DNA from: a virus
Taxonomy: Duplodnaviria; Heunggongvirae; Uroviricota; Caudoviricetes
Length of the DNA: 31,081 nucleotides
Reading direction: 5' to 3' (one strand)
Virus record (IMG/VR): IMGVR_UViG_2526164667_000037
Position numbers and translations under genes: made by a program. The notes under the pieces were generated by a model that saw only the letters and a program-made list of their open reading frames with translations, did no database searches and was not told where the DNA came from. Numbering within the stretch: position 1 is the first letter of the stretch; each line of letters opens with the position of its first letter. Shown piece by piece: positions 1 to 31,081 of the stretch.

Positions 1-981
1 TTATAACGTCACTCCGCCTTTTAGTGGATTCAGAGCGACGGCGTTCTGCAGGTAGTCAGGCGCAAGGTGCGCATAGGTCATTGTCTGCTGAATGCTCGCA
101 TGCCCCAGAATCTGTTGCAGTGCAATTATGTTGCCCCCATTCATCATGAAATGGCTTGCGAATGTATGCCGCAGAATGTGGGTTGCCTGATTGGGAGGTA
201 TATCAGGTTTCACTCTGCGTAAAATCCCGCAAAACTTCTCATAATCTACCTTGAACAATTTGGCGCTGGCCTCCTCTTTAACTTTTTTCTCCAGTTCCTC
301 AGAAATCGGCACTGTTCGCTTTTTACCGTTTTTGGTTTTCAGGAAGGTAACCCTGCAACTTGTAATCTGTGCTGGTTTTAGCGTGGCAACTTCCGTCCAT
401 CTTCCTCCAGTGCTCAGACATAAAAGCGCGACAAGTAAGTCATCACCAGTCAAAACATTTAGCAGTTTTTCGATTTCTGCTTTTTCCAGGAACGTCATTT
501 CAGGGTTAGCCTCCGTCAGTGGCGGCAGTCCGTGAATTGGGTGTTGCCCGGAAAATTCATCCAATTGAATTAATTTTGTGAACATGCCGGATAATCGGTA
601 CATGTCGCGGTTTATCGTTGCAGCACTGATGCCATCACGTAGTCGCATGGAGCGATAATCCATCAAAGCCCTTTTGTTCATCCGACTCACTGGTATATCA
701 CCTATGCCGCTGATGGTTTTGAGCAGATGATTAAACTCTTTTGTCCCATGCTCGTGGTTTTGCCCGTGGTATTTCCACCAGATGTCGAGCAATTCTGTCA
801 AAGTTCGGCGGTCTGCTCGCTGGCCTCCCCATTCTTTCTGACTGGCATTGACGATTGTGTATCGCTCAAATGCTACCGCTTCAGCTTTTCTTTCAAATTT
901 CCTGCGGATGCGTTTTCCATCGCGACCGCGAGGCCTGATATCCACTTCATAACGTCCATCATCGAGCTTTCTGATACTCAT
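1..981 (-). CDS. int: Tyrosine integrase (P2 Int-like), 326 aa
   Basis: Reverse ORF; homology-consistent start MSIRKLDDGRYEVDIRP (ATG at 981-979) rather than the 396-aa extension to 1191; C-terminal HILRHTFASH...YAHL tyrosine-recombinase motifs; position next to the C repressor. Confidence 0.9.
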   Translation of the reverse strand: MSIRKLDDGRYEVDIRPRGRDGKRIRRKFERKAEAVAFERYTIVNASQKEWGGQRADRRTLTELLDIWWKYHGQNHEHGTKEFNHLLKTISGIGDIPVSRMNKRALMDYRSMRLRDGISAATINRDMYRLSGMFTKLIQLDEFSGQHPIHGLPPLTEANPEMTFLEKAEIEKLLNVLTGDDLLVALLCLSTGGRWTEVATLKPAQITSCRVTFLKTKNGKKRTVPISEELEKKVKEEASAKLFKVDYEKFCGILRRVKPDIPPNQATHILRHTFASHFMMNGGNIIALQQILGHASIQQTMTYAHLAPDYLQNAVALNPLKGGVTL

Positions 982-1093
982 AAAGCCCCCCGATGAACAC
1001 GAGTTTTCTTGTTGTTTAGCCCTTTGTGGTTGTGTGATGAATATTTTTTTACCAGTAACATGCATTTTATGTGCATGTAATGTCGGTAAATAG

Positions 1094-1387
1094 TTAGCCA
1101 GTTTTGCGGCCTGAGTGTGACGATGTTGTTTCTTCTGGCCCAGAGTGTGCGACGACCGGGGAAATCTGCCCGGATTCTGGCGCAATCTCATCTGTCATAA
1201 TCCATAATGTATATTTTTTAAACAGCGGTGTGTTGACTACTTGCTTTACGATTTGTAGTCCTGGCTCTTTATGTCCACCTTCATAATTTTTCAACGAACT
1301 AAGTGCTAATCCACTAAGCTCGCAAAATTTTTTTTGTGTTAATCCCTCGGCCTTGCGAATAGCGCGAAGTTTCTCCGATATTTTCAT
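1094..1387 (-). CDS. C: Immunity repressor, P2 C-like but divergent N-terminal half (97 aa)
   Basis: Reverse ORF divergent from cox; HTH-like segment LTQKKFCELSGLALSSLKNYE; C-terminal half KYTLWIMTDEIAPESGQISP...HSGRKTG resembles the P2 C repressor as I recall it. Confidence 0.85.
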   Translation of the reverse strand: MKISEKLRAIRKAEGLTQKKFCELSGLALSSLKNYEGGHKEPGLQIVKQVVNTPLFKKYTLWIMTDEIAPESGQISPVVAHSGPEETTSSHSGRKTG

Positions 1388-3828: not shown

Positions 3829-4100
3829 GTATTCGTATTGAAATTGGCGAACGTTATGTCGTTACCAGTGACAGCTTTCAGTTTATTCTCCACGAGAAAA
3901 AGAGAGCGGAAAGCGGTAAAAACGCCGGTCAGGAATGGCTGGCGGTGGTTGGTTATTATCCGAAATTAAGCCAGCTCGTTTCCGGCCTGATGCATCACGA
4001 TATTCTGACCGGAAGCGCAAAGTCTTTTGCTGATTTAAACGCGCAGGTTGAGCAACTCAGCAGGCGTTGTTCAGAGGCTTTTGGCTCATATGGCCGTTAA
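3825..4100 (+). CDS. P2 orf83-like hypothetical protein (91 aa)
   Basis: ORF coupled to the preceding gene; its 3' end overlaps the start of A. Confidence 0.7.
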   Translation: MSIRIEIGERYVVTSDSFQFILHEKKRAESGKNAGQEWLAVVGYYPKLSQLVSGLMHHDILTGSAKSFADLNAQVEQLSRRCSEAFGSYGR

Positions 4101-6375
4101 AGCCTCCGGGCGTTTTGTCCCTCCTTCAGCATTTGCTGCAGGCACCGGTAAGGCGTTTACCGATGCTTATGCATGGAACGCGCCACGCGAGGCCGTCGGG
4201 CGCGAAAGACCCCTTACACGTGACGAGATGCGTCAGGTGCAAGGTGTTTTATCCACGATTAACCGCCTGCCTTACTTTTTGCGTTCGCTGTTTACTTCAC
4301 GCTATGACTACATCCGGCGCAATAAAAGCCCGGTGCACGGGTTTTATTTCCTCACATCCACTTTTCAGCGTCGTTTATGGCCGCGCATTGAGCGCGTGAA
4401 TCAGCGCCATGAAATGAACACCGACGCGTCGTTGCTGTTTCTGGCAGAGCGTGACCATTATGCGCGTCTGCCGGGGATGAATGATAAGGAGCTGAAAAAG
4501 TTTGCCGCCCGTATTTCATCGCAGCTTTTCATGATGTATGAGGAACTCTGCGATGCCTGGGTGGATGCGCATGGCGAAAAAGAATCGCTGTTTACGGATG
4601 AGGCGCAGGCTCACCTCTATGGTCATGTTGCTGGCGCTGCACGTGCTTTCAATATTTCCCCTCTCTACTGGAAAAAATACCGTAAAGGACAGATGACCAC
4701 GAGGCAGGCATATTCTGCCATTGCCCGTCTGTTTAACGATGAGTGGTGGATTAGTCAGCTTAAAGGCCAGCGTATGCGCTGGCATGAAGCGTTACTGATA
4801 GCTGTCGGGGAGGTCAATAAAGACCGTTCTCCTTATGCCAGTAAACACGCCATTCGTGATGTGCGTGCGCGCCGCCAGGCAAATCTGGAATTTCTTAAAT
4901 CGTGTGACCTTGAAAACAGGGAAACCGGCGAACGCATCGACCTTATCAGTAAGGTGATGGGCAGTATTTCTAATCCTGAAATTCGCCGGATGGAGCTGAT
5001 GAACACCATTGCCGGTATTGAGCGTTACGCCGCCGCAGAGGGTGATGTGGGGATGTTTATCACGCTGACCGCGCCGTCAAAGTATCACCCGACACGTCAG
5101 GTCGGAAAAGGCGAAAGAAAAACCGTCCAGCTTAATCACGGCTGGAATGATGAGGCATTTAATCCAAAGGATGCGCAGCGTTATCTCTGCCGTATCTGGA
5201 GCCTGATGCGCACGGCATTCAAGGATAATGATTTACAGGTCTACGGTTTGCGTGTCGTCGAGCCACACCACGACGGAACGCCGCACTGGCATATGATGCT
5301 TTTTTGTAATCCACGCCAGCGTAACCAGATTATCGAAATCATGCGTCGCTATGCGCTCAAAGAGGATGGTGACGAAAGAGGAGCCGCGCGAAACCGTTTT
5401 CAGGCAAAACACCTTAACCGGGGCGGTGCTGCGGGATATATCGCGAAATACATCTCAAAAAACATCGATGGCTATGCACTGGATGGTCAGCTCGATAACG
5501 ATACCGGCAGGCCGCTGAAAGACACAGCGGCGGCTGTTACCGCATGGGCGTCAACGTGGCGCATACCACAATTTAAAACGGTTGGCCTGCCGACAATGGG
5601 GGCTTACCGTGAACTACGCAAATTGCCTCGCGGCGTCAGCATTGCTGATGAGTTTGACGAGCGCGTCGAGGCTGCACGCGCCGCCGCAGACAGTGGTGAT
5701 TTTGCGTTGTATATCCGCGCGCAGGGTGGGGCAAATGTCCCGCGCGATTGTCAGACTGTCAGGGTCGCCCGTAGCCCGTCGGATGACGTTAACGAGTACG
5801 AGGAAGAGGTCGAGAGAGTGGTCGGCATTTACGCACCGCATCTCGGCGCGCGTCATATTCATATCACCAGAACGACGGAGTGGCGCATTGTGCCGAAAGT
5901 TCCGGTCGTTGAGCCTTTGACTTTAAAAAGCGGCATCGCCGCGCCTCGGAGTCCTGTCAATAACTGTGGAAAGCTCACTGGTGGTGATACTTCGTTACCG
6001 GCTCCCACACCTTCTGAGCACGCCGCAGCAGTGCTTAATCTGGTTGATGACGGTGTTATTGAATGGAATGAACCGGAGGTCGTGAGGGCGCTCAGGGGCG
6101 CATTAAAACACGACCTGCGAACGCCAAACCGTCAGCAAAGAAACGGAAGCCCGTTAAAACCACATGAAATTGCACCATCGGCCAGACTGACCCGGTCGGA
6201 AAGAATGCAAATTACCCGTATCCGCGTTGACCTTGCTCAGAACGGTATCAGGCCGCAGCGATGGGAGCTTGAGGCGCTGGCGCGTGGCGCGACCGTAAAT
6301 TATGACGGGAAAAAATTCACGTATCCGGTCGCTGATGAGTGGCCGGGATTCTCAACAGTAATGGAGTGGAAATGA
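4090..6375 (+). CDS. A: Replication initiation protein A (rolling-circle nicking endonuclease), 761 aa
   Basis: Start MAVKASGRFVPP at 4090 gives the P2 A length; contains PHWHMMLF (HUH-type motif) and Tyr-rich active-site region; sequence matches P2 A as I recall it. Confidence 0.95.
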   Translation: MAVKASGRFVPPSAFAAGTGKAFTDAYAWNAPREAVGRERPLTRDEMRQVQGVLSTINRLPYFLRSLFTSRYDYIRRNKSPVHGFYFLTSTFQRRLWPRIERVNQRHEMNTDASLLFLAERDHYARLPGMNDKELKKFAARISSQLFMMYEELCDAWVDAHGEKESLFTDEAQAHLYGHVAGAARAFNISPLYWKKYRKGQMTTRQAYSAIARLFNDEWWISQLKGQRMRWHEALLIAVGEVNKDRSPYASKHAIRDVRARRQANLEFLKSCDLENRETGERIDLISKVMGSISNPEIRRMELMNTIAGIERYAAAEGDVGMFITLTAPSKYHPTRQVGKGERKTVQLNHGWNDEAFNPKDAQRYLCRIWSLMRTAFKDNDLQVYGLRVVEPHHDGTPHWHMMLFCNPRQRNQIIEIMRRYALKEDGDERGAARNRFQAKHLNRGGAAGYIAKYISKNIDGYALDGQLDNDTGRPLKDTAAAVTAWASTWRIPQFKTVGLPTMGAYRELRKLPRGVSIADEFDERVEAARAAADSGDFALYIRAQGGANVPRDCQTVRVARSPSDDVNEYEEEVERVVGIYAPHLGARHIHITRTTEWRIVPKVPVVEPLTLKSGIAAPRSPVNNCGKLTGGDTSLPAPTPSEHAAAVLNLVDDGVIEWNEPEVVRALRGALKHDLRTPNRQQRNGSPLKPHEIAPSARLTRSERMQITRIRVDLAQNGIRPQRWELEALARGATVNYDGKKFTYPVADEWPGFSTVMEWK

Positions 6376-6827
6376 TGGCAAAAATTCACGAGGTAAAGCT
6401 GCACGCCAAATATTTTGACCTTGTGCTGGAAGGAAAGAAACGCGCAGAGTTTCGGAAAAATGACCGTAATTATGAGCGCGGGGACACGCTGATTTTGCAT
6501 GAATGGGTACAGGGTGTGTTTACGGGGCGAAAGGTTGAAGCCCGGATAACAGATGTTACTGACCTGTCAGACTGGCTGGAAGATTATGTCTTGCTAAGTA
6601 TTGAGCTGCTTAATACAGGCGCATATGAGATTGTGAACTGGAAAGAACTTAGTGAGCGTGGTCTGGTATTCAGAATTAATCATGAAATTATGCATCAGCT
6701 CGGTCTTGCTGTTATGTATGAGTCAGTGACAGGCCTGTCTGGCGGAGCAGTGGTTGCCACGGATGGAGCATGGAACTATTCAGATGAACAGATGGAGCGT
6801 GCACAGCAAAACGGGTGGCTTGGATAA
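6372..6827 (+). CDS. ASCH/DUF3850-like (PUA-fold) protein, about 151 aa, coupled to A
   Basis: ATG overlaps the A stop (ATGATG at 6372-6377); N-terminus KIHEVKLHAKYFDLVLEGKKRAEFRKNDRNYERGDTLILHEW looks like an ASCH-type domain (recognised by eye, not searched). Confidence 0.65.
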   Translation: MMAKIHEVKLHAKYFDLVLEGKKRAEFRKNDRNYERGDTLILHEWVQGVFTGRKVEARITDVTDLSDWLEDYVLLSIELLNTGAYEIVNWKELSERGLVFRINHEIMHQLGLAVMYESVTGLSGGAVVATDGAWNYSDEQMERAQQNGWLG

Positions 6828-7048
6828 TGCACAGAATACCAGGCGAGATACCGCACCATAAAACTAAAAATATCAAGCTGATGGCCATTGTTCACCGTCT
6901 ACAGCAGATTATGGTAAACGAAAATCTGACGCCTGATGAGCTGGTCGGGTGTGCGCAAATTGTTAGGGATAATTACGAGCGTTTGAACGATATGATTCAG
7001 CTTGGTACTTTCCAGCCAACAATACCTTTCTGGGGGCAACCTCGATAA
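6827..7048 (+). CDS. Hypothetical small protein (73 aa)
   Basis: ATG 6827 overlapping the previous stop (TAATG); no recognisable family. Confidence 0.45.
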   Translation: MHRIPGEIPHHKTKNIKLMAIVHRLQQIMVNENLTPDELVGCAQIVRDNYERLNDMIQLGTFQPTIPFWGQPR

Positions 7049-7053
7049 CCATA

Positions 7054-7096
7054 AAACCCTGCAGGTGCTGAAACTTGTTTTCAACACCTGCAGGGT
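7054..7096. repeat. Perfect 13-bp inverted repeat (AACCCTGCAGGTG ... CACCTGCAGGGTT) with 17-nt loop
   Basis: Read directly in the sequence; not followed by a T-run; sits at the boundary between the phage-GC region and the AT-rich cassette. Confidence 0.8.
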
Positions 7097-7170
7097 TGAG
7101 CAATGAGCGGCGCTAGGAGTTAGCAGCCTAGATTTCTGAATGTAACCCATTATAAAAATGATTTTGTGAT

Positions 7171-7200
7171 TTGAAGCTTGGAATTAAAATGAGTTAAAAT
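7171..7200 (+). promoter_or_regulatory. Candidate sigma70 promoter for the AT-rich cassette
   Basis: TTGAAG (7171-7176), 18-bp spacer, TAAAAT (7195-7200), within an AT-rich leader upstream of ATG 7267. Confidence 0.3.
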
Positions 7201-7266
7201 GAGTAGTGTTAACAGGCTGATAAACTAAACCAAGTAAGTTGTAAAAATAAATAGTGGAGTGTACAA

Positions 7267-7653
7267 ATGACACAGCAATATGTTAAAGACGTCATGATTG
7301 GTCAGAGGAAATTGCTTTCATCTAATACTTTCATAATTCCAAAAGGTGAAATGTGTGATTTTAAATTAAATATATCTGATGACGAGAATGAGTTTAACTT
7401 TCCTATTCGCATTGCCTTTGATGATGATGGCGGTTCAACTCAATCAGTTGAGTTCAAACCAGATCCATCCTCAAGCTCTATGAAAATGATCTTGCATAAC
7501 TGGAATAACCCTCTTGGCTCTGCGCTGAAAGAGTTTTACCCTATTGTTAATATCGAGAATAGAACAACAATTGAAATGCTTATGGTAAATAAAAGACTTG
7601 GCGATGTAAATGAACTGGTTATTCAATTCTGGCGAAAGGTCGAAATGTCATGA
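7267..7653 (+). CDS. Hypothetical protein, 128 aa, no recognised domain (first gene of AT-rich cassette)
   Basis: ORF with GGAG 7 nt upstream of ATG; low GC; stop overlaps the next start (ATGA at 7650-7653). Confidence 0.7.
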   Translation: MTQQYVKDVMIGQRKLLSSNTFIIPKGEMCDFKLNISDDENEFNFPIRIAFDDDGGSTQSVEFKPDPSSSSMKMILHNWNNPLGSALKEFYPIVNIENRTTIEMLMVNKRLGDVNELVIQFWRKVEMS

Positions 7654-8006
7654 ATAAGCCAAAAATAGAACTAGCTACAATTCCTGTCTCGCCTGATGAT
7701 ATATCCACTAACTTGCAGGTGGGTGTAATAGTTGTTAGTGAGGATAAGTTGATTCGCATCCTTGAAAAGGATCGGGAGAGGACTAAAAAGAATATGGCTT
7801 GGACAGCTCCTGCTAGTTTTTTTATCACATTGATTGTTGCAATATTAACAACTGATTTTAAAAGTCGGTGGGGTATGCCTGCGGAAGCATGGCAGGCGCT
7901 TTTTTATGTAGGGGCGGGATTATCTGCAATCTTTGCTGTTATTTATTGGTGTAAAGTAGACAGAAAAGACATGGATAAGTTGATTGAAGAGATAAAAGGT
8001 AAATAG
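7650..8006 (+). CDS. Small membrane protein, 118 aa, two predicted TM helices (second gene of cassette)
   Basis: Hydrophobic segments WTAPASFFITLIVAILTTDF and AWQALFYVGAGLSAIFAVIYW flanked by charged residues; translationally coupled to the upstream ORF. Confidence 0.7.
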   Translation: MNKPKIELATIPVSPDDISTNLQVGVIVVSEDKLIRILEKDRERTKKNMAWTAPASFFITLIVAILTTDFKSRWGMPAEAWQALFYVGAGLSAIFAVIYWCKVDRKDMDKLIEEIKGK

Positions 8007-8027
8007 TCTCTTCCTATTTCACATTAT

Positions 8028-8055
8028 GGGGGATTCTTGAGTTATGCCCCCTTTT
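8028..8055 (+). terminator. Putative terminator (GGGGG-loop-CCCCC-TTTT) after the cassette
   Basis: GGGGG 8028-8032, CCCCC 8047-8051, then TTTT; 14-nt loop makes it weak. Confidence 0.35.
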
Positions 8056-8063
8056 GTAACGTG

Positions 8064-8093
8064 AAAAACTGGCATCTTGAGAGCCAGTTTTTT
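8064..8093. terminator. Putative bidirectional rho-independent terminator
   Basis: AAAACTGGC (8065-8073) pairs with GCCAGTTTT (8083-8091); A-run on one side and T-run on the other. Confidence 0.5.
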
Positions 8094-8252
8094 ATGCGTT
8101 TCTTCCCGATTTTCAGACTTTTTTAGATCTGCATGCGTTATTGCATCGAATTGCATGCGTTTCCATCTCCTGTAGCGTCTGAGCGTCGCCAGTGCTGGCG
8201 CCCCTCCGGCATGTTCGTGCACCTGCATTAAAACCGCCCTATGAAGCGGGCG

Positions 8253-8271
8253 GGCGAGGCGGGGAAAGCAC
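8253..8271. other. cos site (19-nt cohesive end GGCGAGGCGGGGAAAGCAC)
   Basis: Matches the P2 cohesive-end sequence as I recall it; located upstream of the portal/terminase genes. Confidence 0.85.
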
Positions 8272-8440
8272 TGCGCGCTGGCGGTGGTGCTGATTTTATT
8301 TTTTCAGCGTCTGAGCGCGTCTTGATGGCGTTTAGATTGTGCGCCGGGGCGTTGGTGTGTCTGCGGGGTGTTTTGTGCGGTGGTGAGCGTGTGAGGGCGT
8401 GATGACGGGGTGTAAAAAAGCCGCCCGCAGGCGGCGATGT

Positions 8441-9475
8441 TCAGCCGTTGTCAGTGTCCAGTGAGTAGTTTTTAAAGCGGATGACCTCCTGGCCGAGCCA
8501 GCCGTTTATTTCCCGAATCCTGTCCTGTAACGGGATAAGTTCATTGCGGACAAAGACCTTTGCCACTTTCTCAATATCACCCAGCGACCCGACGTTCTCC
8601 GGCTTGCCGCCCATCAACTGAAAAGGGATGCGGTGCGCGTCCAGCAGGTCTGCGGCGCTGGCTTTTTTGATATTAAAAAAATCGTCCTTCGTTGCCACTT
8701 CACTGAGCGGGATAATTTTAATACCGTCGGCTTTTCCCTGTGGGGCGTAGAGAAACAGGTTTTTAAAGTTGTTGCGGCCTTTCGACTTCACCATGTTTTC
8801 GCGAAGCATTTCGATATCGTTGCGATCCTGCACGGCATCGGTGACGTACATGATGTATCCGGCATGTGCGCCGTTTTCGTAATACTTGCGGCGGAACAGC
8901 GTGGCCGACTCATTCAGCCAGGCAGAGTTAAGGGCGCTGAGATATTCCGGCAGGCCGTACAGCTCCTGATTGATATCCGGCTCCAGCAGGTGAAACACGG
9001 AGCCGGGCGCGAAAGGTGTCGGCTCGTTGAAGGATGGCACCCACCAGTAAACATCCTCCTCCACGCCACGGCGGGTATATTTTGCCGGTGAGGTTTCCAG
9101 TCTGATGACCTTACCGGTAGTGCTGTAGCGCTTTTCCAGAAACGCATTACCGAACACCAGAAAATCCAGCACAAAGCGGCTGAAATCCTGCTGGGAAAGC
9201 CACGGGTGCGGGATAAACGTTGAGGCCAGAATATTACGTTTGACGTAAATCGGTGAGCTGTGATGCACGGCAGCACGCAGGCTTTTTGCCAGACCGGTAA
9301 AGCTGACCGGTGGCTCATACCATCTGCCGTTACTGATGCACTCGACGTAATCCAGAATATCACGGCGGTCGAGTACCGGCACCGGCTCACCAAAGGTGAA
9401 TGCCTCCATTTTCGGGGCGCTGGCAGTCATTGTTTTCACCGCTGGCTGCGGTGTTTTCCCTTTTTTCTTACTCAT
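8441..9475 (-). CDS. Q: Portal protein (344 aa)
   Basis: Same length and position as P2 Q; start overlaps the P stop. Confidence 0.95.
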   Translation of the reverse strand: MSKKKGKTPQPAVKTMTASAPKMEAFTFGEPVPVLDRRDILDYVECISNGRWYEPPVSFTGLAKSLRAAVHHSSPIYVKRNILASTFIPHPWLSQQDFSRFVLDFLVFGNAFLEKRYSTTGKVIRLETSPAKYTRRGVEEDVYWWVPSFNEPTPFAPGSVFHLLEPDINQELYGLPEYLSALNSAWLNESATLFRRKYYENGAHAGYIMYVTDAVQDRNDIEMLRENMVKSKGRNNFKNLFLYAPQGKADGIKIIPLSEVATKDDFFNIKKASAADLLDAHRIPFQLMGGKPENVGSLGDIEKVAKVFVRNELIPLQDRIREINGWLGQEVIRFKNYSLDTDNG

Positions 9476-14969: not shown

Positions 14970-15251
14970 ATGACAGCAGAAGAAAAAAGCGTCCTGTCGC
15001 TTTTTATGATTGGAGTGCTGATTGTTGTCGGCAAGGTGCTTGCCGGTGGTGAACCCATCACCCCGCGTCTGTTTATCGGGCGCATGTTGCTCGGTGGTTT
15101 TGTCTCGATGGTTGCCGGTGTTGTTCTGGTGCAGTTTCCTGACCTGTCACTGCCTGCGGTGTGCGGCATCGGCTCCATGCTGGGTATCGCCGGCTATCAG
15201 GTGATTGAGATTGCCATTCAGCGCCGTTTTAAGGGCAGGGGGAAACCGTAA
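14970..15251 (+). CDS. Y: Holin (93 aa)
   Basis: Hydrophobic membrane protein at the holin position, same length as P2 Y. Confidence 0.9.
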   Translation: MTAEEKSVLSLFMIGVLIVVGKVLAGGEPITPRLFIGRMLLGGFVSMVAGVVLVQFPDLSLPAVCGIGSMLGIAGYQVIEIAIQRRFKGRGKP

Positions 15252-15748
15252 TGCCGGTAATTAACACGCATCAGAATATCGCCGCCTTTCTCGACATGCT
15301 GGCCGTGTCCGAAGGGACGGCGAATCATCCGCTGACGAAAAACCGGGGCTATGACGTGATAGTCACCGGACTGGACGGAAAGCCGGAAATTTTCACCGAC
15401 TACAGTGACCACCCGTTCGCACATGGCCGACCGGCGAAGGTGTTTAACCGTCGCGGTGAAAAATCCACGGCCTCCGGTCGCTATCAGCAACTTTACCTGT
15501 TCTGGCCGCATTACCGCAAACAGCTTGCCCTGCCGGATTTCAGTCCGTTGTCACAGGACAGGCTCGCCATTCAGTTGATCCGCGAACGCGGTGCACTGGA
15601 TGACATCCGGGCGGGACGCATTGAGCGCGCCATTTCACGCTGTCGCAATATCTGGGCGTCCCTGCCGGGTGCCGGTTACGGTCAGCGTGAGCATTCACTG
15701 GAAAAACTGGTCACCGTCTGGCGTACCGCTGGCGGCGTACCGGCTTAA
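15251..15748 (+). CDS. K: Endolysin / lysozyme (165 aa)
   Basis: Length and position as P2 K. Confidence 0.9.
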   Translation: MPVINTHQNIAAFLDMLAVSEGTANHPLTKNRGYDVIVTGLDGKPEIFTDYSDHPFAHGRPAKVFNRRGEKSTASGRYQQLYLFWPHYRKQLALPDFSPLSQDRLAIQLIRERGALDDIRAGRIERAISRCRNIWASLPGAGYGQREHSLEKLVTVWRTAGGVPA

Positions 15749-15762
15749 ACGGAGTAAACACC

Positions 15763-16188
15763 ATGAAGAAATTATCCCTTTCACTGATGCTGAATGTGTC
15801 GCTGGCGCTGATGCTGGCACTGTCCCTGATTTACCCGCAGAGCGTGGCCGTCAATTTTGTCGCCACCTGGGCGATTCTGGCGACGGTTATCTGTGTGGTT
15901 GCCGGTGGTGTCGGTGTGTATGCCACTGAGTATGTACTGGAACGCTACGGACGGGAGCTGCCGCCGGAATCGCTGGCCGTGAAGATTGTCGCGTCGCTGT
16001 TTTTGCAGCCGGTGCCGTGGCGCAGACGGGCGGCGGCTCTGGTGGTGATGGTGGCGACGTTTATCTCGCTGGTCGCTGCCGGGTGGATTTTTACCGCGCT
16101 GATTTACCTCGTGGCGTCGGTGTTCTTCCGGCTGATACGCACGGCCTGTCGTCAGCGTTTTGAGGGGCGGGAACCATGTCAAAGCTGA
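15763..16188 (+). CDS. lysA: Lysis accessory membrane protein LysA (141 aa)
   Basis: Multi-TM hydrophobic protein after K, as in P2. Confidence 0.85.
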   Translation: MKKLSLSLMLNVSLALMLALSLIYPQSVAVNFVATWAILATVICVVAGGVGVYATEYVLERYGRELPPESLAVKIVASLFLQPVPWRRRAAALVVMVATFISLVAAGWIFTALIYLVASVFFRLIRTACRQRFEGREPCQS

Positions 16189-16646
16189 TGATTGTGCTGG
16201 TTGTGTTGTTATCACTGGCGGTGGCCGGTCTGTTTCTGGCGAAGCATGAAAACGCCAGCCTGCGCACCTCGCTGGACAGGGCGAACAACGTAGCCAGCGA
16301 GCAACAGGCGACCATCACCATGCTGAAAAATCAGCTTCATGTTGCGCTCACCAGGGCAGACAAAAACGAGCTGGCGCAGGTGGCACTGCGTCAGGAACTG
16401 GAAAACGCCGCGAAGCGTGAAGCTCAGCGCGAGAAAACCATCACGAGATTACTCAATGAAAACGAAGATTTCCGCCGCTGGTATGGCGCTGACCTGCCTG
16501 ATGCTGTGCGCCGGTTGCACCAGCGCCCCGCCTGCACCGACGCCAGTGATTGTCCACAACGCCTGCCCGAAAGTGAGTCTTTGCCCGATGCCGGGCAGTG
16601 CCCCGCAGACGAACGGCGATTTAAGTGCCGATATCCGGCAGCTTGA
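16176..16646 (+). CDS. lysB: Inner-membrane spanin component (Rz-like), 156 aa
   Basis: N-terminal TM helix followed by a charged coiled-coil-like region; P2 lysB position. Confidence 0.85.
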   Translation: MSKLMIVLVVLLSLAVAGLFLAKHENASLRTSLDRANNVASEQQATITMLKNQLHVALTRADKNELAQVALRQELENAAKREAQREKTITRLLNENEDFRRWYGADLPDAVRRLHQRPACTDASDCPQRLPESESLPDAGQCPADERRFKCRYPAA

Positions 16647-16746
16647 GAACGCGCTGGCACGCTGTGCCAGCCAGGTAAAAATGATTAAACACTGTCAGGA
16701 CGAAAACGATGCTCAAACCCGACAGCCTGCGCAGGGCGCTGACTGA
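16456..16746 (+). CDS. lysC: Outer-membrane lipoprotein spanin (Rz1-like), 96 aa, embedded out of frame in lysB
   Basis: ATG 16456; signal peptide with lipobox-like LCAGC; Pro-rich mature region; nested frame as in P2 lysB/lysC. Confidence 0.8.
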   Translation: MKTKISAAGMALTCLMLCAGCTSAPPAPTPVIVHNACPKVSLCPMPGSAPQTNGDLSADIRQLENALARCASQVKMIKHCQDENDAQTRQPAQGAD

Positions 16747-21518: not shown

Positions 21519-22123
21519 TGGATAAAGCTATATTAAATAAGGAACTCATCGCCACAAAGGCGGGAGATATTACCGTTTATAATTATGATGGTGAAACACG
21601 AGAATATATTTTCACATCAACCGAATATCTTGCTGTGGGTGTCGGTATCCCGGCATGTTCCTGTTTAGATGCTCCTGGCTCATATAAAGCTGGTTATGCA
21701 ATTTGCCGTTCTGCAGATTTTAACTCATGGGAATATGTGCCAGACCATCGCGGTGAAATCGTCTATAGCACCGAAACAGGAGAATCAAAAGAAATCACAG
21801 CTCCGGGTGATTACCCTGAAAAGACAACCACTATCGCCCCGTTAACGCCATACGATAAATGGGATGGTGAGAAATGGGTGACGGATACCGAGGCACAGCA
21901 TAGAGCAGCAGTAGACATGGCAGAAACACAGCGGCAGTCGCTGATTGATGCTGCAATGGTTTCCATTAGTCTGATTCAACTGAAATTGCAGGCCGGGCGG
22001 AAGCTGACGCAGGCAGAAAACACCCGACTTAACGCCGTGCTGGATTACACTGACGCGGTGATGGCAACAGATACCAGCACCGCGCCAGATGTCATCTGGC
22101 CAGTTCCTCCTGAGACGGTTTAA
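21518..22123 (+). CDS. Tail fibre assembly chaperone (Tfa, functional analogue of P2 G), 201 aa
   Basis: Immediately downstream of the tail fibre gene; C-terminal region ending ...PDVIWPVPPE is typical of Tfa chaperones. Confidence 0.75.
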   Translation: MDKAILNKELIATKAGDITVYNYDGETREYIFTSTEYLAVGVGIPACSCLDAPGSYKAGYAICRSADFNSWEYVPDHRGEIVYSTETGESKEITAPGDYPEKTTTIAPLTPYDKWDGEKWVTDTEAQHRAAVDMAETQRQSLIDAAMVSISLIQLKLQAGRKLTQAENTRLNAVLDYTDAVMATDTSTAPDVIWPVPPETV

Positions 22124-22289
22124 TCTCAATCAGAATGGGTTCTCCCTTCTCGTTAACAGATATTTCCATTCCTTCAGGGATTTCAGATGCAGTAAAAAAC
22201 CAGTTATCTTCTGGTAATTCAACAGCCCCGGTCACGTCATGAAGACCGGGGATTACTTCAGTCAAAGTAACAGGATTAAACAGGCGCAC
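22092..22289 (-). CDS. Putative alternative small tail-fibre-assembly protein (Tfa') inside the invertible segment
   Basis: Reverse ORF; best start is GTG 22289 with GGAGG 7 nt upstream, just after the alternative fibre cassette stop (an ATG at 22379 gives a 95-aa version); its 3' end overlaps the forward Tfa by 32 bp; function inferred from position only. Confidence 0.3.
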   Translation of the reverse strand: MRLFNPVTLTEVIPGLHDVTGAVELPEDNWFFTASEIPEGMEISVNEKGEPILIEIKPSQEELAR

Positions 22290-22605
22290 AATAAACCCTC
22301 CAGGAAAAAGCACTTGTTGATGGTGTTCCGTCGTACATCTGGCAGCGGACATAAAAACCGGTATTAGTGACCTGGTCATCCACGATCATTGAAACGTGAA
22401 CGTTATTAGATGTGCCCCCATAATCCGTTCCTATTCTTTCCGCTATGCTGATAAAACGTGAAAGCTTAGGTAGCGCAATTGGATAAACGACTTTAGCCAG
22501 TCCATTATCATTAGAACCCCCCGTTCCAAAGACTTCTATTGCACCATCTGACCAGCGTATCCACGCACCATTGGCATTAGCTCCTCGCTGAATGACATAT
22601 CTGGC
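22276..22605 (-). CDS. Promoterless alternative tail-fibre C-terminal cassette (S'v-like), silent in this orientation
   Basis: Reverse frame runs through the right crossover site encoding the same GLGE junction as the tail fibre gene, then about 108 aa of different sequence (ARYVIQRGANANGAWIRWSDGAIEVFGTGG...); inversion would fuse it to H residues 1-279. Confidence 0.6.
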   Translation of the reverse strand, partial: ARYVIQRGANANGAWIRWSDGAIEVFGTGGSNDNGLAKVVYPIALPKLSRFISIAERIGTDYGGTSNNVHVSMIVDDQVTNTGFYVRCQMYDGTPSTSAFSWRVYCAPV

Positions 22606-22631
22606 TTCTCCCAAACCAACGTTTAAGAAAA
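22606..22631. repeat. Inversion crossover site, right (hix/gix/cix-like)
   Basis: TTCTCCCAAACCAACGTTTAAGAAAA, inverted relative to 20994-21019; about 55 bp upstream of the invertase gene. Confidence 0.75.
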
Positions 22632-22686
22632 TGCAGAGATTATGGCTAACTGGCATCATCTCCGGTTTTTATTCAGGGGGATGCTC

Positions 22687-23280
22687 ATGCTTATTGGCTA
22701 TGTACGCGTGTCAACAAATGACCAGAACACGGAATTGCAGCGTAATGCGCTGGAGTGCGCAGGATGCGAGCGGATTTTTGAGGATAAAATCAGCGGCACG
22801 AAGTCCGACCGACCGGGACTGAAAAAACTGCTCAGAACATTATCAGCAGGTGACACTCTGGTGGTCTGGAAGCTGGACAGGCTGGGGCGTAGTATGCGGC
22901 ATCTGGTCATTCTGGTTGAGGAACTGCGCGAACGCGGCGTTAATTTTCGCAGCCTGACGGATGCTATTGATACCAGCACGCCGATGGGGCGTTTTTTCTT
23001 TCATGTGATGGGTGCCCTGGCTGAAATGGAGCGAGAACTCATTGTCGAGCGGACACGCGCCGGACTGGAAGCGGCCAGAGCCAAAGGTCGTATTGGTGGC
23101 AGACGACCGAAACTCACTGCGGGTGAGTGGGAGCAGGTCGGACGGTTGCTGGCTGCGGGGGAATCTCGTCAACGTGTGGCGCTGATTTTTGATATTGGTC
23201 TGTCCACGCTCTATAAAAAATTCCCCTCATCAGCGACAAAGAATAAATTGTGTCATCCCTTAGCCAACCGGGACAAATAG
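22687..23280 (+). CDS. Serine DNA invertase (Gin/Pin/Cin/Hin family), about 197 aa
   Basis: Start MLIGYVRVSTNDQNTELQRNALECAGCERIFEDK...; catalytic-Ser N-terminal domain and C-terminal HTH (GLSTLYKK) closely resemble Mu Gin as I recall it; the upstream ORF extension from 22642 is rejected. Confidence 0.9.
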   Translation: MLIGYVRVSTNDQNTELQRNALECAGCERIFEDKISGTKSDRPGLKKLLRTLSAGDTLVVWKLDRLGRSMRHLVILVEELRERGVNFRSLTDAIDTSTPMGRFFFHVMGALAEMERELIVERTRAGLEAARAKGRIGGRRPKLTAGEWEQVGRLLAAGESRQRVALIFDIGLSTLYKKFPSSATKNKLCHPLANRDK

Positions 23281-30097: not shown

Positions 30098-30178
30098 ATC
30101 CTCAATTTGCCTGCTGCTTAATGCATTGCAGATGATTTGCTTCCGTTATACTAGCGTCAGTTGATAGCGGGAGTATTT

Positions 30179-31081
30179 ATGAATCAATCTTATGGACGGC
30201 TGGTCAGTCGGGCGGCGATTGCTGCGACGGCGATGGCTTCGTTGCTATTGCTGATTAAAATTTTTGCATGGTGGTATACCGGGTCGGTGAGTATTCTCGC
30301 CGCGCTGGTGGATTCGCTGGTGGATATCGGCGCGTCGTTGACGAATTTACTGGTGGTGCGATATTCCCTGCAACCTGCCGACGATAATCACTCGTTTGGT
30401 CACGGTAAAGCAGAGTCCCTCGCGGCGCTGGCGCAAAGTATGTTTATCTCCGGTTCGGCACTATTCCTGTTTTTGACGGGTATTCAACATCTGATATCTC
30501 CAACACCGATGACAGATCCAGGCGTCGGGGTTATCGTGACAATTGTGGCGCTAATTTGTACGATTATCCTTGTCTCGTTTCAGCGTTGGGTGGTGCGCCG
30601 GACGCAAAGCCAGGCGGTGCGGGCTGATATGCTACATTACCAGTCTGATGTTATGATGAACGGCGCAATTCTGCTGGCGCTGGGGTTGTCCTGGTACGGC
30701 TGGCATCGCGCCGATGCTCTGTTTGCATTGGGAATCGGCATCTATATTTTATATAGCGCGTTACGCATGGGATATGAGGCGGTACAGTCATTACTGGATC
30801 GCGCATTGCCTGATGAGGAACGGCAAGAAATTATTGATATCGTGACTTCCTGGCCGGGTGTTAGCGGCGCTCACGATCTTCGCACGCGGCAGTCAGGGCC
30901 GACCCGCTTTATTCAGATTCATTTGGAAATGGAAGACTCTCTGCCTTTGGTTCAGGCACATATGGTGGCGGATCAGGTAGAGCAGGCTATTTTACGGCGT
31001 TTTCCGGGATCGGATGTAATTATCCATCAGGACCCCTGTTCCGTCGTACCCAGGGAGGGTAAACGGTCTATGCTTTCATAA
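30179..31081 (+). CDS. fieF: Cation-diffusion-facilitator family ferrous-iron/zinc efflux transporter (300 aa), host gene
   Basis: Start [35 protein letters not shown] at 30179 with GGGAG RBS; sequence matches E. coli FieF (YiiP) as I recall it; full length, stop at 31079-31081. Confidence 0.9.

Follow-up and report, generated by a model that had tools for sequence, protein, structure and literature searches.

We analyzed a 31,081-nt stretch of DNA (IMG/VR record IMGVR_UViG_2526164667_000037; the window, below, is this whole stretch), which in its entirety represents a complete P2-like prophage, and found that two small overlapping genes located between its replication gene gpA and the cohesive-end site (cos) beside the portal gene gpQ form a true conserved two-gene module, reaching well beyond P2. 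The first open reading frame (ORF) of this cassette, ORF1, encodes a soluble protein of the Pfam family DUF6864, and the second, ORF2, encodes a protein with two transmembrane (TM) helices. We see about an even chance that the cassette is a prophage-expressed abortive-infection or exclusion module, in which ORF1 would be the cytoplasmic sensor or regulator and ORF2 the membrane effector.

ORF1 (positions 7267-7653, plus strand) encodes 128 amino acids (aa) with a predicted all-beta fold, and ORF2 (7650-8006, plus strand) encodes 118 aa with TM helices at residues 48-68 and 80-101. The two are coupled by an ATGA overlap, as a first-pass annotation made from the sequence of the window had read them. 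We examined the arrangement in 12 independent contexts (the window, L002, L006, L007, L025, L027, L012 of Pantoea, L014, L016, L017, L023 and L024). In all of these (12/12), a DUF6864 gene is followed by a small gene for a two-TM protein that overlaps it by 4-14 nt, and in 11/12 this partner is an ORF2 homolog carrying an [ST]EDKL motif. The overlap of the pair reads ATGA or GTGA. An apparent loss of ORF2 from L006 and L011 was rejected, as tblastn recovered intact homologs that the gene caller had missed, the one in L006 having a GTG start. A third conserved gene was likewise rejected, since the ORFs of 204, 204 and 237 aa found upstream of three of the pairs are mutually unrelated.

Divergence in one gene is paralleled by divergence in the other (Spearman 0.64 over 36 pairs), and both genes are under strong purifying selection, with a ratio of nonsynonymous to synonymous substitution rates (dN/dS) of 0.08-0.15 where dS is unsaturated. 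Homologs within the Enterobacterales, from E. coli, Citrobacter, Enterobacter, Klebsiella and Salmonella, retain 57-99% identity in ORF1 and 60-96% in ORF2, and all the Enterobacterales pairs that we looked up occur together in the gpA-portal slot of P2-type (Cox) or 186-type (CI/CP76) prophages. The genes that share the slot differ between these prophages: an SLFN/AlbA_2 gene on the opposite strand in L007-L010, a 237-aa ORF in L002-L005, a 667-aa ORF in L025, and DinI together with a DnaJ-domain protein in L027. The presence of the pair in both prophage types with differing co-cargo indicates that it moves independently of its neighbors.

Two of these co-cargos have features of their own. 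The SLFN/AlbA_2 gene (9052-11562 in L007; also in L008-L010), which encodes 836 aa and occupies the same hotspot as a related cassette, is likely a second defense cargo of the slot. The 237-aa ORF (7209-7922 in L002) immediately precedes the pair in 186-type prophages and contains a CxxC...H...CxxC pattern that recalls HNH nucleases; it gave no Pfam or PADLOC hit.

More distant DUF6864 members, at 22-36% identity, come from Pantoea ananatis (L011-L013), from metagenome contigs (L014-L016 and L023-L024) and from a metagenome-assembled genome (L017-L019). Their partners were recognized with a hidden Markov model built from the close ORF2 homologs, at E-values of 1.5e-20 in the Pantoea locus L012, 1e-12 in L024, 3.7e-4 in L016, 2.3e-3 in L014 and 9.8e-3 in L023. 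These distant ORF2-family partners have in common the motif [IV]x[IV][ST]EDKL, the first TM helix, a loop ending in AW, a glycine-containing second TM helix and a C-terminal [IV]xxIK helix. No match to the cassette was found among the INPHARED phages (megablast and tblastn) or the PLSDB plasmids (tblastn), so that it is known only from prophages and chromosomes.

The single exception to the partner family, L017, encodes a different 89-aa two-TM protein that is not an ORF2 homolog. Its locus (6001-7615; also L018 and L019) consists of the DUF6864 gene, the gene for the 89-aa protein, and then a gene for a 300-aa TIR/nucleoside-deoxyribosyltransferase-like protein (PADLOC TIR effector, E = 3e-10), and may be a variant of three genes with an exchanged membrane partner.

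In the window, the cassette is a self-contained variable cargo of the P2 gpA-cos/gpQ hotspot, which houses old and tin in P2 itself, plus several validated defense systems (Rousset et al. 2022). The cargo segment, delimited by blastn junctions and base composition, spans 6994-8217 (1,224 bp). When positions 6300-8700 were compared by blastn with related prophage loci, homology on the left ended at 6993, within the 3' end of a 77-aa ORF, in all compared loci, and on the right it resumed at 8143 or 8218, such that the right edge of the cargo falls at 8142 against L007-L010 and at 8217 against L020-L022. Between the same junctions L020-L022 hold alternative cargos: a cytosine methyltransferase with a ParB-N protein, two unrelated hypothetical proteins, and a hypothetical protein with IS2. 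Among 5426 complete E. coli genomes, the left flank (6400-7050) is present in 375 and the cos/portal flank in 2156, and the ORF1-ORF2 cassette in 5 only, each at 100% identity; the comparison of the slot that the first-pass annotation had proposed thus showed its cargo to be variable.

The same annotation had described the cassette as foreign in composition, and this was borne out. With 39.1% G+C against 53.0% for the whole window, the cargo is the lowest-G+C 1.2-kb stretch of the window, and in 200-nt windows the G+C fraction is 0.30-0.42 across 7100-8100 as compared with 0.50-0.62 in the flanks. The drop claimed for individual 60-nt lines is real as well, but its quoted minimum of 22% is too low, the poorest 60-nt line having 27%. 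Cassette G+C is below that of the surroundings in every locus compared.

Outside P2, the pair was found in six contexts. In L016 it lies between McrBC and the Druantia genes DruF/DruE (E = 2e-161 and 2e-195), and in L023 it adjoins a Type ISP/IIG restriction-modification enzyme (3e-220; Pfam Type_ISP_C). In L017-L019 it stands beside an integrase, followed by the TIR/Nuc_deoxyrib_tr-like protein and a PsyrA/ShosA-like DprA protein. The remaining neighborhoods are a TacA/GNAT toxin-antitoxin pair in partly metabolic surroundings (L014), an island with an integrase and insertion sequence (IS) remnants (Pantoea), and an uninformative one (L024). The non-P2 neighborhoods point in the same direction as the P2 slot, namely to defense. 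Conservation of the pair down to about 25% identity, together with its location beside McrBC/Druantia, Type ISP, TIR-/PsyrA-like and TacAT genes in unrelated bacteria, strengthens the hypothesis of an anti-phage function.

The match of ORF1 to Pfam DUF6864 (PF21732) is marginal in score (27.1 bits as compared with a cutoff of 27.0; E = 4e-6; 94/114 profile positions). Close homologs of ORF1 hold precomputed PF21732 hits, and PGAP names the ORF1 protein DUF6864; it also matches phrog_35122. A profile of the ORF1 clade, searched against 1.84 billion representative proteins, retrieved 69 clusters at E<=1e-3, nearly all of them stand-alone proteins of 111-127 aa that are matched end to end. Several of these clusters are annotated PF21732, and retrieval extended down to 22% identity. 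Within the family W79 alone is invariant, with P25, F51, G84, G112 and N115 nearly so, and no conserved pattern of acids, bases or nucleophiles was seen across it, which suggests a binding rather than a catalytic role. The AlphaFold2 model of ORF1 is all-beta, with ten strands, at a mean predicted local distance difference test score (pLDDT) of 69.8 and a predicted template modeling score of 0.65. ORF1 has neither a signal peptide nor a TM segment (maximum Kyte-Doolittle hydropathy 0.52). The lack of catalytic-type residues and of a TM segment fits a binder or sensor, and we propose that ORF1 is a cytoplasmic sensor or regulator.

For ORF2, the two hydrophobic helices noted by the first-pass annotation stand, and two TM helices are also given by Phobius in Table S5B of Rousset et al. 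2022; the short charged termini do not, for the N-terminus is a conserved cytoplasmic segment of about 47 aa. The protein carries the N-terminal [ST]EDKL motif, a short conserved loop of the form DFKxxxG..AW and, at its C-terminus, an amphipathic [IV]xxIK tail, and its cytoplasmic segments are its most conserved parts. A K/R-rich stretch ahead of the first TM helix suggests, by the positive-inside rule, that both termini are cytoplasmic. On these features, we propose that ORF2 is an inner-membrane effector. A class II holin or pinholin was considered and rejected: two TM helices and a charged C-terminus fit, but ORF2 lies outside the lysis cassette, has a conserved 47-aa N-terminal domain, and belongs to a pair that is found outside phages. 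Lysis in the window is already served by a complete P2 cassette at about 14970-16700 (holin, lysozyme, LysB and LysC).

Neither the pair nor its first protein is wholly new, and the label "undescribed" given at first was too strong. Rousset et al. 2022 (Cell Host Microbe) had already listed exactly this pair, as System #78 of their Table S5B, where protein 1 is ORF2 and protein 2 is ORF1, with identical sequences; it is entered there with 50 occurrences in 18,150 loci, without Pfam, and with the remark "2 TM in protein 1". Table S5A of the same study gives the arrangement with the RefSeq accessions of this pair. The hotspot catalogue comprises about 169 systems, most of them untested, and System #78 is absent from the study's lists of cloned ones (Tables S2A and S2B). 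ORF1, which the first-pass annotation had not recognized as a member of any named family, belongs to DUF6864, itself a family without assigned function or literature; ORF2 matches phrog_32870 only. Neither DUF6864 nor the two RefSeq accessions are mentioned in the main text of the searched literature, and the function, the partner family and the wide distribution of the pair are not in that literature. The link to DUF6864, the obligate two-TM partner, and the conservation and neighborhoods of the pair outside P2 are new here, and the catalogue entry reports none of them.

The genes, their coupling, their co-conservation, their mobility and their neighborhoods are established, and the mechanism that we favor builds on them. 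In this mechanism, the lysogen would express the pair, and ORF1, a small non-enzymatic beta-sandwich protein, would be made in a fixed ratio with ORF2, which would span the inner membrane and have both its termini on the cytoplasmic side. ORF1 would bind the conserved cytoplasmic N- and C-terminal segments of ORF2 and keep it inactive, or would sense an infection cue. When a competing phage infects, ORF2 would oligomerize, possibly through a small-residue motif in its second TM helix, and would permeabilize or depolarize the membrane, such that infection is stopped and the infected cell is lost. We infer expression in the lysogen, contact between ORF1 and ORF2, membrane damage and phage restriction alike.

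A similar division of labor is known from phage lambda. RexAB is a two-gene unit of the prophage, consisting of a soluble and a polytopic inner-membrane protein, that has been proposed to abort infection through membrane damage. The cassette resembles RexA/RexB, as well as a RexAB-like system of the P4 hotspot, in being a prophage-borne two-gene unit of this kind, and the analogy is one of architecture only. There is no homology between them (hhalign probability of 0.2% for the ORF2 family against the RexB-like protein, and 0.2% for the ORF1 family against the RexA-like protein), ORF2 has two TM helices whereas RexB has four, and ORF1 has 128 aa as compared with about 280-310 aa in RexA. P2 old/tin and the 2TM+1TM+TIR system of the P2-like phage AC1 occupy the same slot next to cos as the cassette, and the AC1 system also employs small TM proteins. 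The proteins of all these systems are nevertheless unrelated to those of the cassette (when the ORF2 family was aligned to the 2TM and 1TM proteins of AC1, the hhalign probability was <=0.4%), and the cargo of the window has no TIR, ATPase or nuclease partner; only the distant L017-type variant has a TIR-like gene, downstream of its pair. Kinship of ORF2 to Gop, to the AC1 2TM and 1TM proteins, and to the RexB-like, RT-nitrilase 1TM and hydrolase 3TM proteins was rejected, with hhalign probabilities all <=1%, and neither ORF1 nor ORF2 matches a hotspot system that has been tested.

Several observations weigh against a defense function. First, it is something we infer from sequence and context. 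The sample is small, and the 3/6 non-P2 contexts that lie directly beside recognized defense genes are too few for statistics; the P2 hotspot, moreover, holds non-defense cargo too, including partition systems and a cytolethal distending toxin. The PADLOC profile search proposed at the outset matched neither ORF1 nor ORF2 to any model of PADLOC-DB v2.0.0 (no hit at E<=1), and four distant DUF6864 proteins and their partners had no PADLOC hit either, apart from a chance-level CARF_2M match in one partner (E = 0.0086). Neither protein is in the supplements of DefensePredictor, of Vassallo et al. 2022 or of the 2026 P2/P4 survey. The structure models are moderate for ORF1 (pLDDT 70) and poor for ORF2 (AlphaFold2 pLDDT 58) and give no structural lead to the function of either protein; profile searches of both families against PDB sequences found nothing. 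Promoter evidence is weak as well, with sigma-70-like matches in the leader region no more frequent than in shuffled sequences. Of the defense hypothesis as first put forward, the slot cargo, the foreign composition, the coupled pair and the two-TM protein have all stood, and homology to known defense models and a structural lead have not been forthcoming.

An unlikely but serious contender is that the pair is a toxin-antitoxin or addiction module, in which ORF2 is a membrane toxin and ORF1 its antitoxin, stabilizing the prophage or island through post-segregational killing and affecting phages only incidentally. The small genes, overlapping by ATGA or GTGA with the soluble product encoded first, are arranged as in many type II toxin-antitoxin operons. 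Both genes are strictly co-inherited, the pair is carried by mobile elements and by islands with integrases and IS elements, and one copy (L014) stands beside a TacA/GNAT pair. Type II and type V systems with small membrane toxins, such as GhoST, are likewise composed of two small coupled genes on mobile DNA, soluble first and membrane second. However, no homology to GhoST-like pairs was detected, and simple lytic peptides have no counterpart to the conserved 47-aa cytoplasmic domain of ORF2. In ORF1 we detected no HTH, RHH, AbrB or similar DNA-binding domain, as the autoregulation typical of type II systems needs, and its predicted fold matches no regulator convincingly and is not recognizable as a DNA- or RNA-binding or RNase fold. 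In addition, a single-copy integrated prophage has little use for segregational stabilization, and the slot, along with three non-phage neighborhoods, is rich in defense genes. Toxin-antitoxin and abortive-infection functions are not mutually exclusive, and this explanation overlaps with the defense reading.

It is quite unlikely that the pair acts in superinfection exclusion of the non-abortive kind, in which ORF2, aided or positioned by ORF1, would block genome entry in the manner of Sie/Imm-type proteins and the host would survive. In its favor, the prophage carries the gene for this small inner-membrane protein at an exclusion locus, and a short conserved periplasmic loop of ORF2, DFKxxxG..AW, could touch the injection apparatus or a host channel. 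On the other hand, the most conserved parts of ORF2 and its obligate partner are cytoplasmic, which is easier to reconcile with sensing or regulation inside the cell than with a block in the periplasm. Chromosomal defense islands of distant high-G+C bacteria contain the pair too, and there an entry block would face quite different phages; PADLOC and PHROG profiles revealed no homology to any exclusion protein.

We regard as improbable the proposal that the pair is an accessory "moron" with a role unrelated to phages, such as in membrane stress, transport, host fitness or lysis timing, hitch-hiking in a permissive slot. The partition systems and the toxin found in the same hotspot would be in line with such a role, as would the lack of homology to defense proteins and the two non-P2 contexts that are uninformative (L024) or partly metabolic (L014). 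Lysis is nevertheless provided for by the complete cassette elsewhere in the window, the occurrence of the pair outside phages argues against a function in the phage life cycle, and a housekeeping factor is unlikely to turn up time and again beside restriction, Druantia and TIR/PsyrA-like genes. Moreover, the conservation of ORF1 is not that of an enzyme, and a transporter would be larger than ORF2. Counter-defense cargo that shields the P2-like phage from host systems is a very remote prospect: phage hotspots can bear anti-defense genes, and 28 P2 elements with anti-restriction-modification or anti-CRISPR genes were reported in the 2026 P2/P4 survey, but the pair occurs among defense genes in bacterial chromosomes, away from any phage, does not lie among immediate-early genes but follows the early operon, from which a strong hairpin separates it, and encodes a membrane protein, which is unusual for an anti-defense factor.

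The defense reading is thus plausible, better supported now than when it was first proposed, and unproven; among the many untested cargos of the hotspot, the pair stands out as compact, well conserved and easy to test. If it is anti-phage, it represents a new sensor-effector family of compact size (about 740 bp), made of two proteins without known relatives, and would provide the first function for Pfam DUF6864 and for its unnamed membrane partner. The family extends from P2/186 prophages of E. coli, Citrobacter, Enterobacter, Klebsiella and Salmonella to defense islands of unrelated environmental bacteria, so that one cloning experiment would annotate the whole family as well as one entry of the P2 hotspot catalogue. 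Should it turn out to be a simple toxin-antitoxin system or to work as an exclusion protein, it would still be a clean case of hotspot cargo common to phages and chromosomal islands. More tentatively, and with less than even expectation, we suggest that DUF6864 and the "[ST]EDKL" two-TM protein make up an unrecognized, widespread minimal defense system, a counterpart of RexAB built from unrelated folds. In such a system, a beta-sandwich of about 120 aa without structural relatives would sense a phage cue and gate a two-helix pore, both in Enterobacterales P2/186 prophages and in chromosomal islands of distant high-G+C bacteria.

Around the coding region, the cargo contains several elements that bear on its expression. 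A strong hairpin (7055-7097, plus strand) begins 7 nt past the stop codon of the 77-aa ORF, with a predicted folding free energy (dG) of -29.9 kcal/mol and a z-score of -5.6. The inverted repeat described there by the first-pass annotation as a perfect 13-bp one exists, but its arms are in fact 19 nt long with one mismatch. The hairpin lies inside the cargo, its motif was found in no other compared locus except L001, and it scores as a terminator on the minus strand only; it probably insulates the cassette from the early operon or terminates transcription between the two. The promoter-like leader claimed for the cassette is weakly supported, coming down to a single sigma-70-like match of 9/12 in the AT-rich leader (TTGAAG-18-TAAAAT, 7171-7200, plus strand) in a region without excess over shuffles. 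The -10 hexamer of this match, the only promoter-like one, is overlapped by a perfect tandem 10-bp repeat, TTAAAATGAG x2 (7184-7203), which could be an operator or a duplication scar. A P2 late (Ogr-dependent) promoter was ruled out, as the leader has no Ogr-type TGT-N12-ACA dyad. A GGAG ribosome-binding site (7256-7259, plus strand) precedes the ATG of ORF1 by 7 nt.

Downstream of ORF2, an intrinsic-terminator-like hairpin (8060-8096, plus strand; dG -19.0, z-score -4.6) is preceded by an A-run and followed by a T-run, and is predicted, convincingly, to terminate the cassette transcript and potentially to act in both directions. Of the tandem terminators described earlier, this one stands. 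The other, a weak GGGGG/CCCCC hairpin followed by TTTTG (8028-8051, plus strand), is at chance level (z-score -0.32), with 81/200 shuffled sequences folding equally well. An Rfam scan of 6900-8450 gave sub-threshold chance matches only. Between the window and L007, conservation is limited to the coding part (7298-8002; 77% nucleotide identity) and does not extend to the leader or the hairpin.

The window opens with the integrase gene (1-1191, minus strand) and ends with a host cation-efflux (fieF-like) gene (30161-31081), the middle being made up of structural and lysis genes. In E. coli SCU-482, one of the five genomes with the cassette, a region 99.4% identical to the window adjoins cpxP; with cpxP on the left and the fieF-like gene on the right, the attachment site is placed between cpxP and fieF. 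The slot is bordered on the left by gpA (4048-6375), followed by a DUF3850/ASCH+DUF7415 gene (6339-6827) and the 77-aa ORF (6815-7048) ahead of the cassette, and on the right by the cos core of P2/P4, GGCGAGGCGGGGAAAGCAC (8253-8271, plus strand; read directly), which we take to be the 19-nt cohesive end of P2, and then by gpQ (8441-9475, minus strand). Rousset et al. 2022 (Table S2) give P4 and P2 clones in which the GGCGAGGCGGGGAAAGCAC string also adjoins the hotspot. The DUF3850/ASCH gene and the 77-aa ORF were considered as parts of the module and rejected, since they belong to the conserved flank, present in 375 genomes with many cargos, and do not accompany the distant pairs.

The DUF3850/ASCH+DUF7415 gene is a full-length form of P2 orf91. 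The orf91 sequence (Rousset et al. 2022, Table S2A) agrees with it up to "...DYVLL" and diverges beyond, which places the P2 cargo junction inside that gene, and the junction of the window about 170 bp further to the right, in the 77-aa ORF. The two arms of an imperfect inverted repeat containing CACCTGCA (78% over 18 nt) are at 7060-7077 and 8210-8227, one within the left hairpin and the other at the right cargo junction (8218); the repeat may be due to chance, or may be a trace of the recombination that put the cargo in place. Far from the slot, just past the tail-fibre genes H and G, lies a gene for a serine DNA invertase (Resolvase + HTH_7, E = 1e-52; 22642-23280). It is adjoined by minus-strand ORFs at 22276-22659 and 22092-22379, one of them with weak similarity to a tail-fibre C-terminus, and the region as a whole (22092-23280) looks like an invertible host-range switch of the Gin/Cin type.

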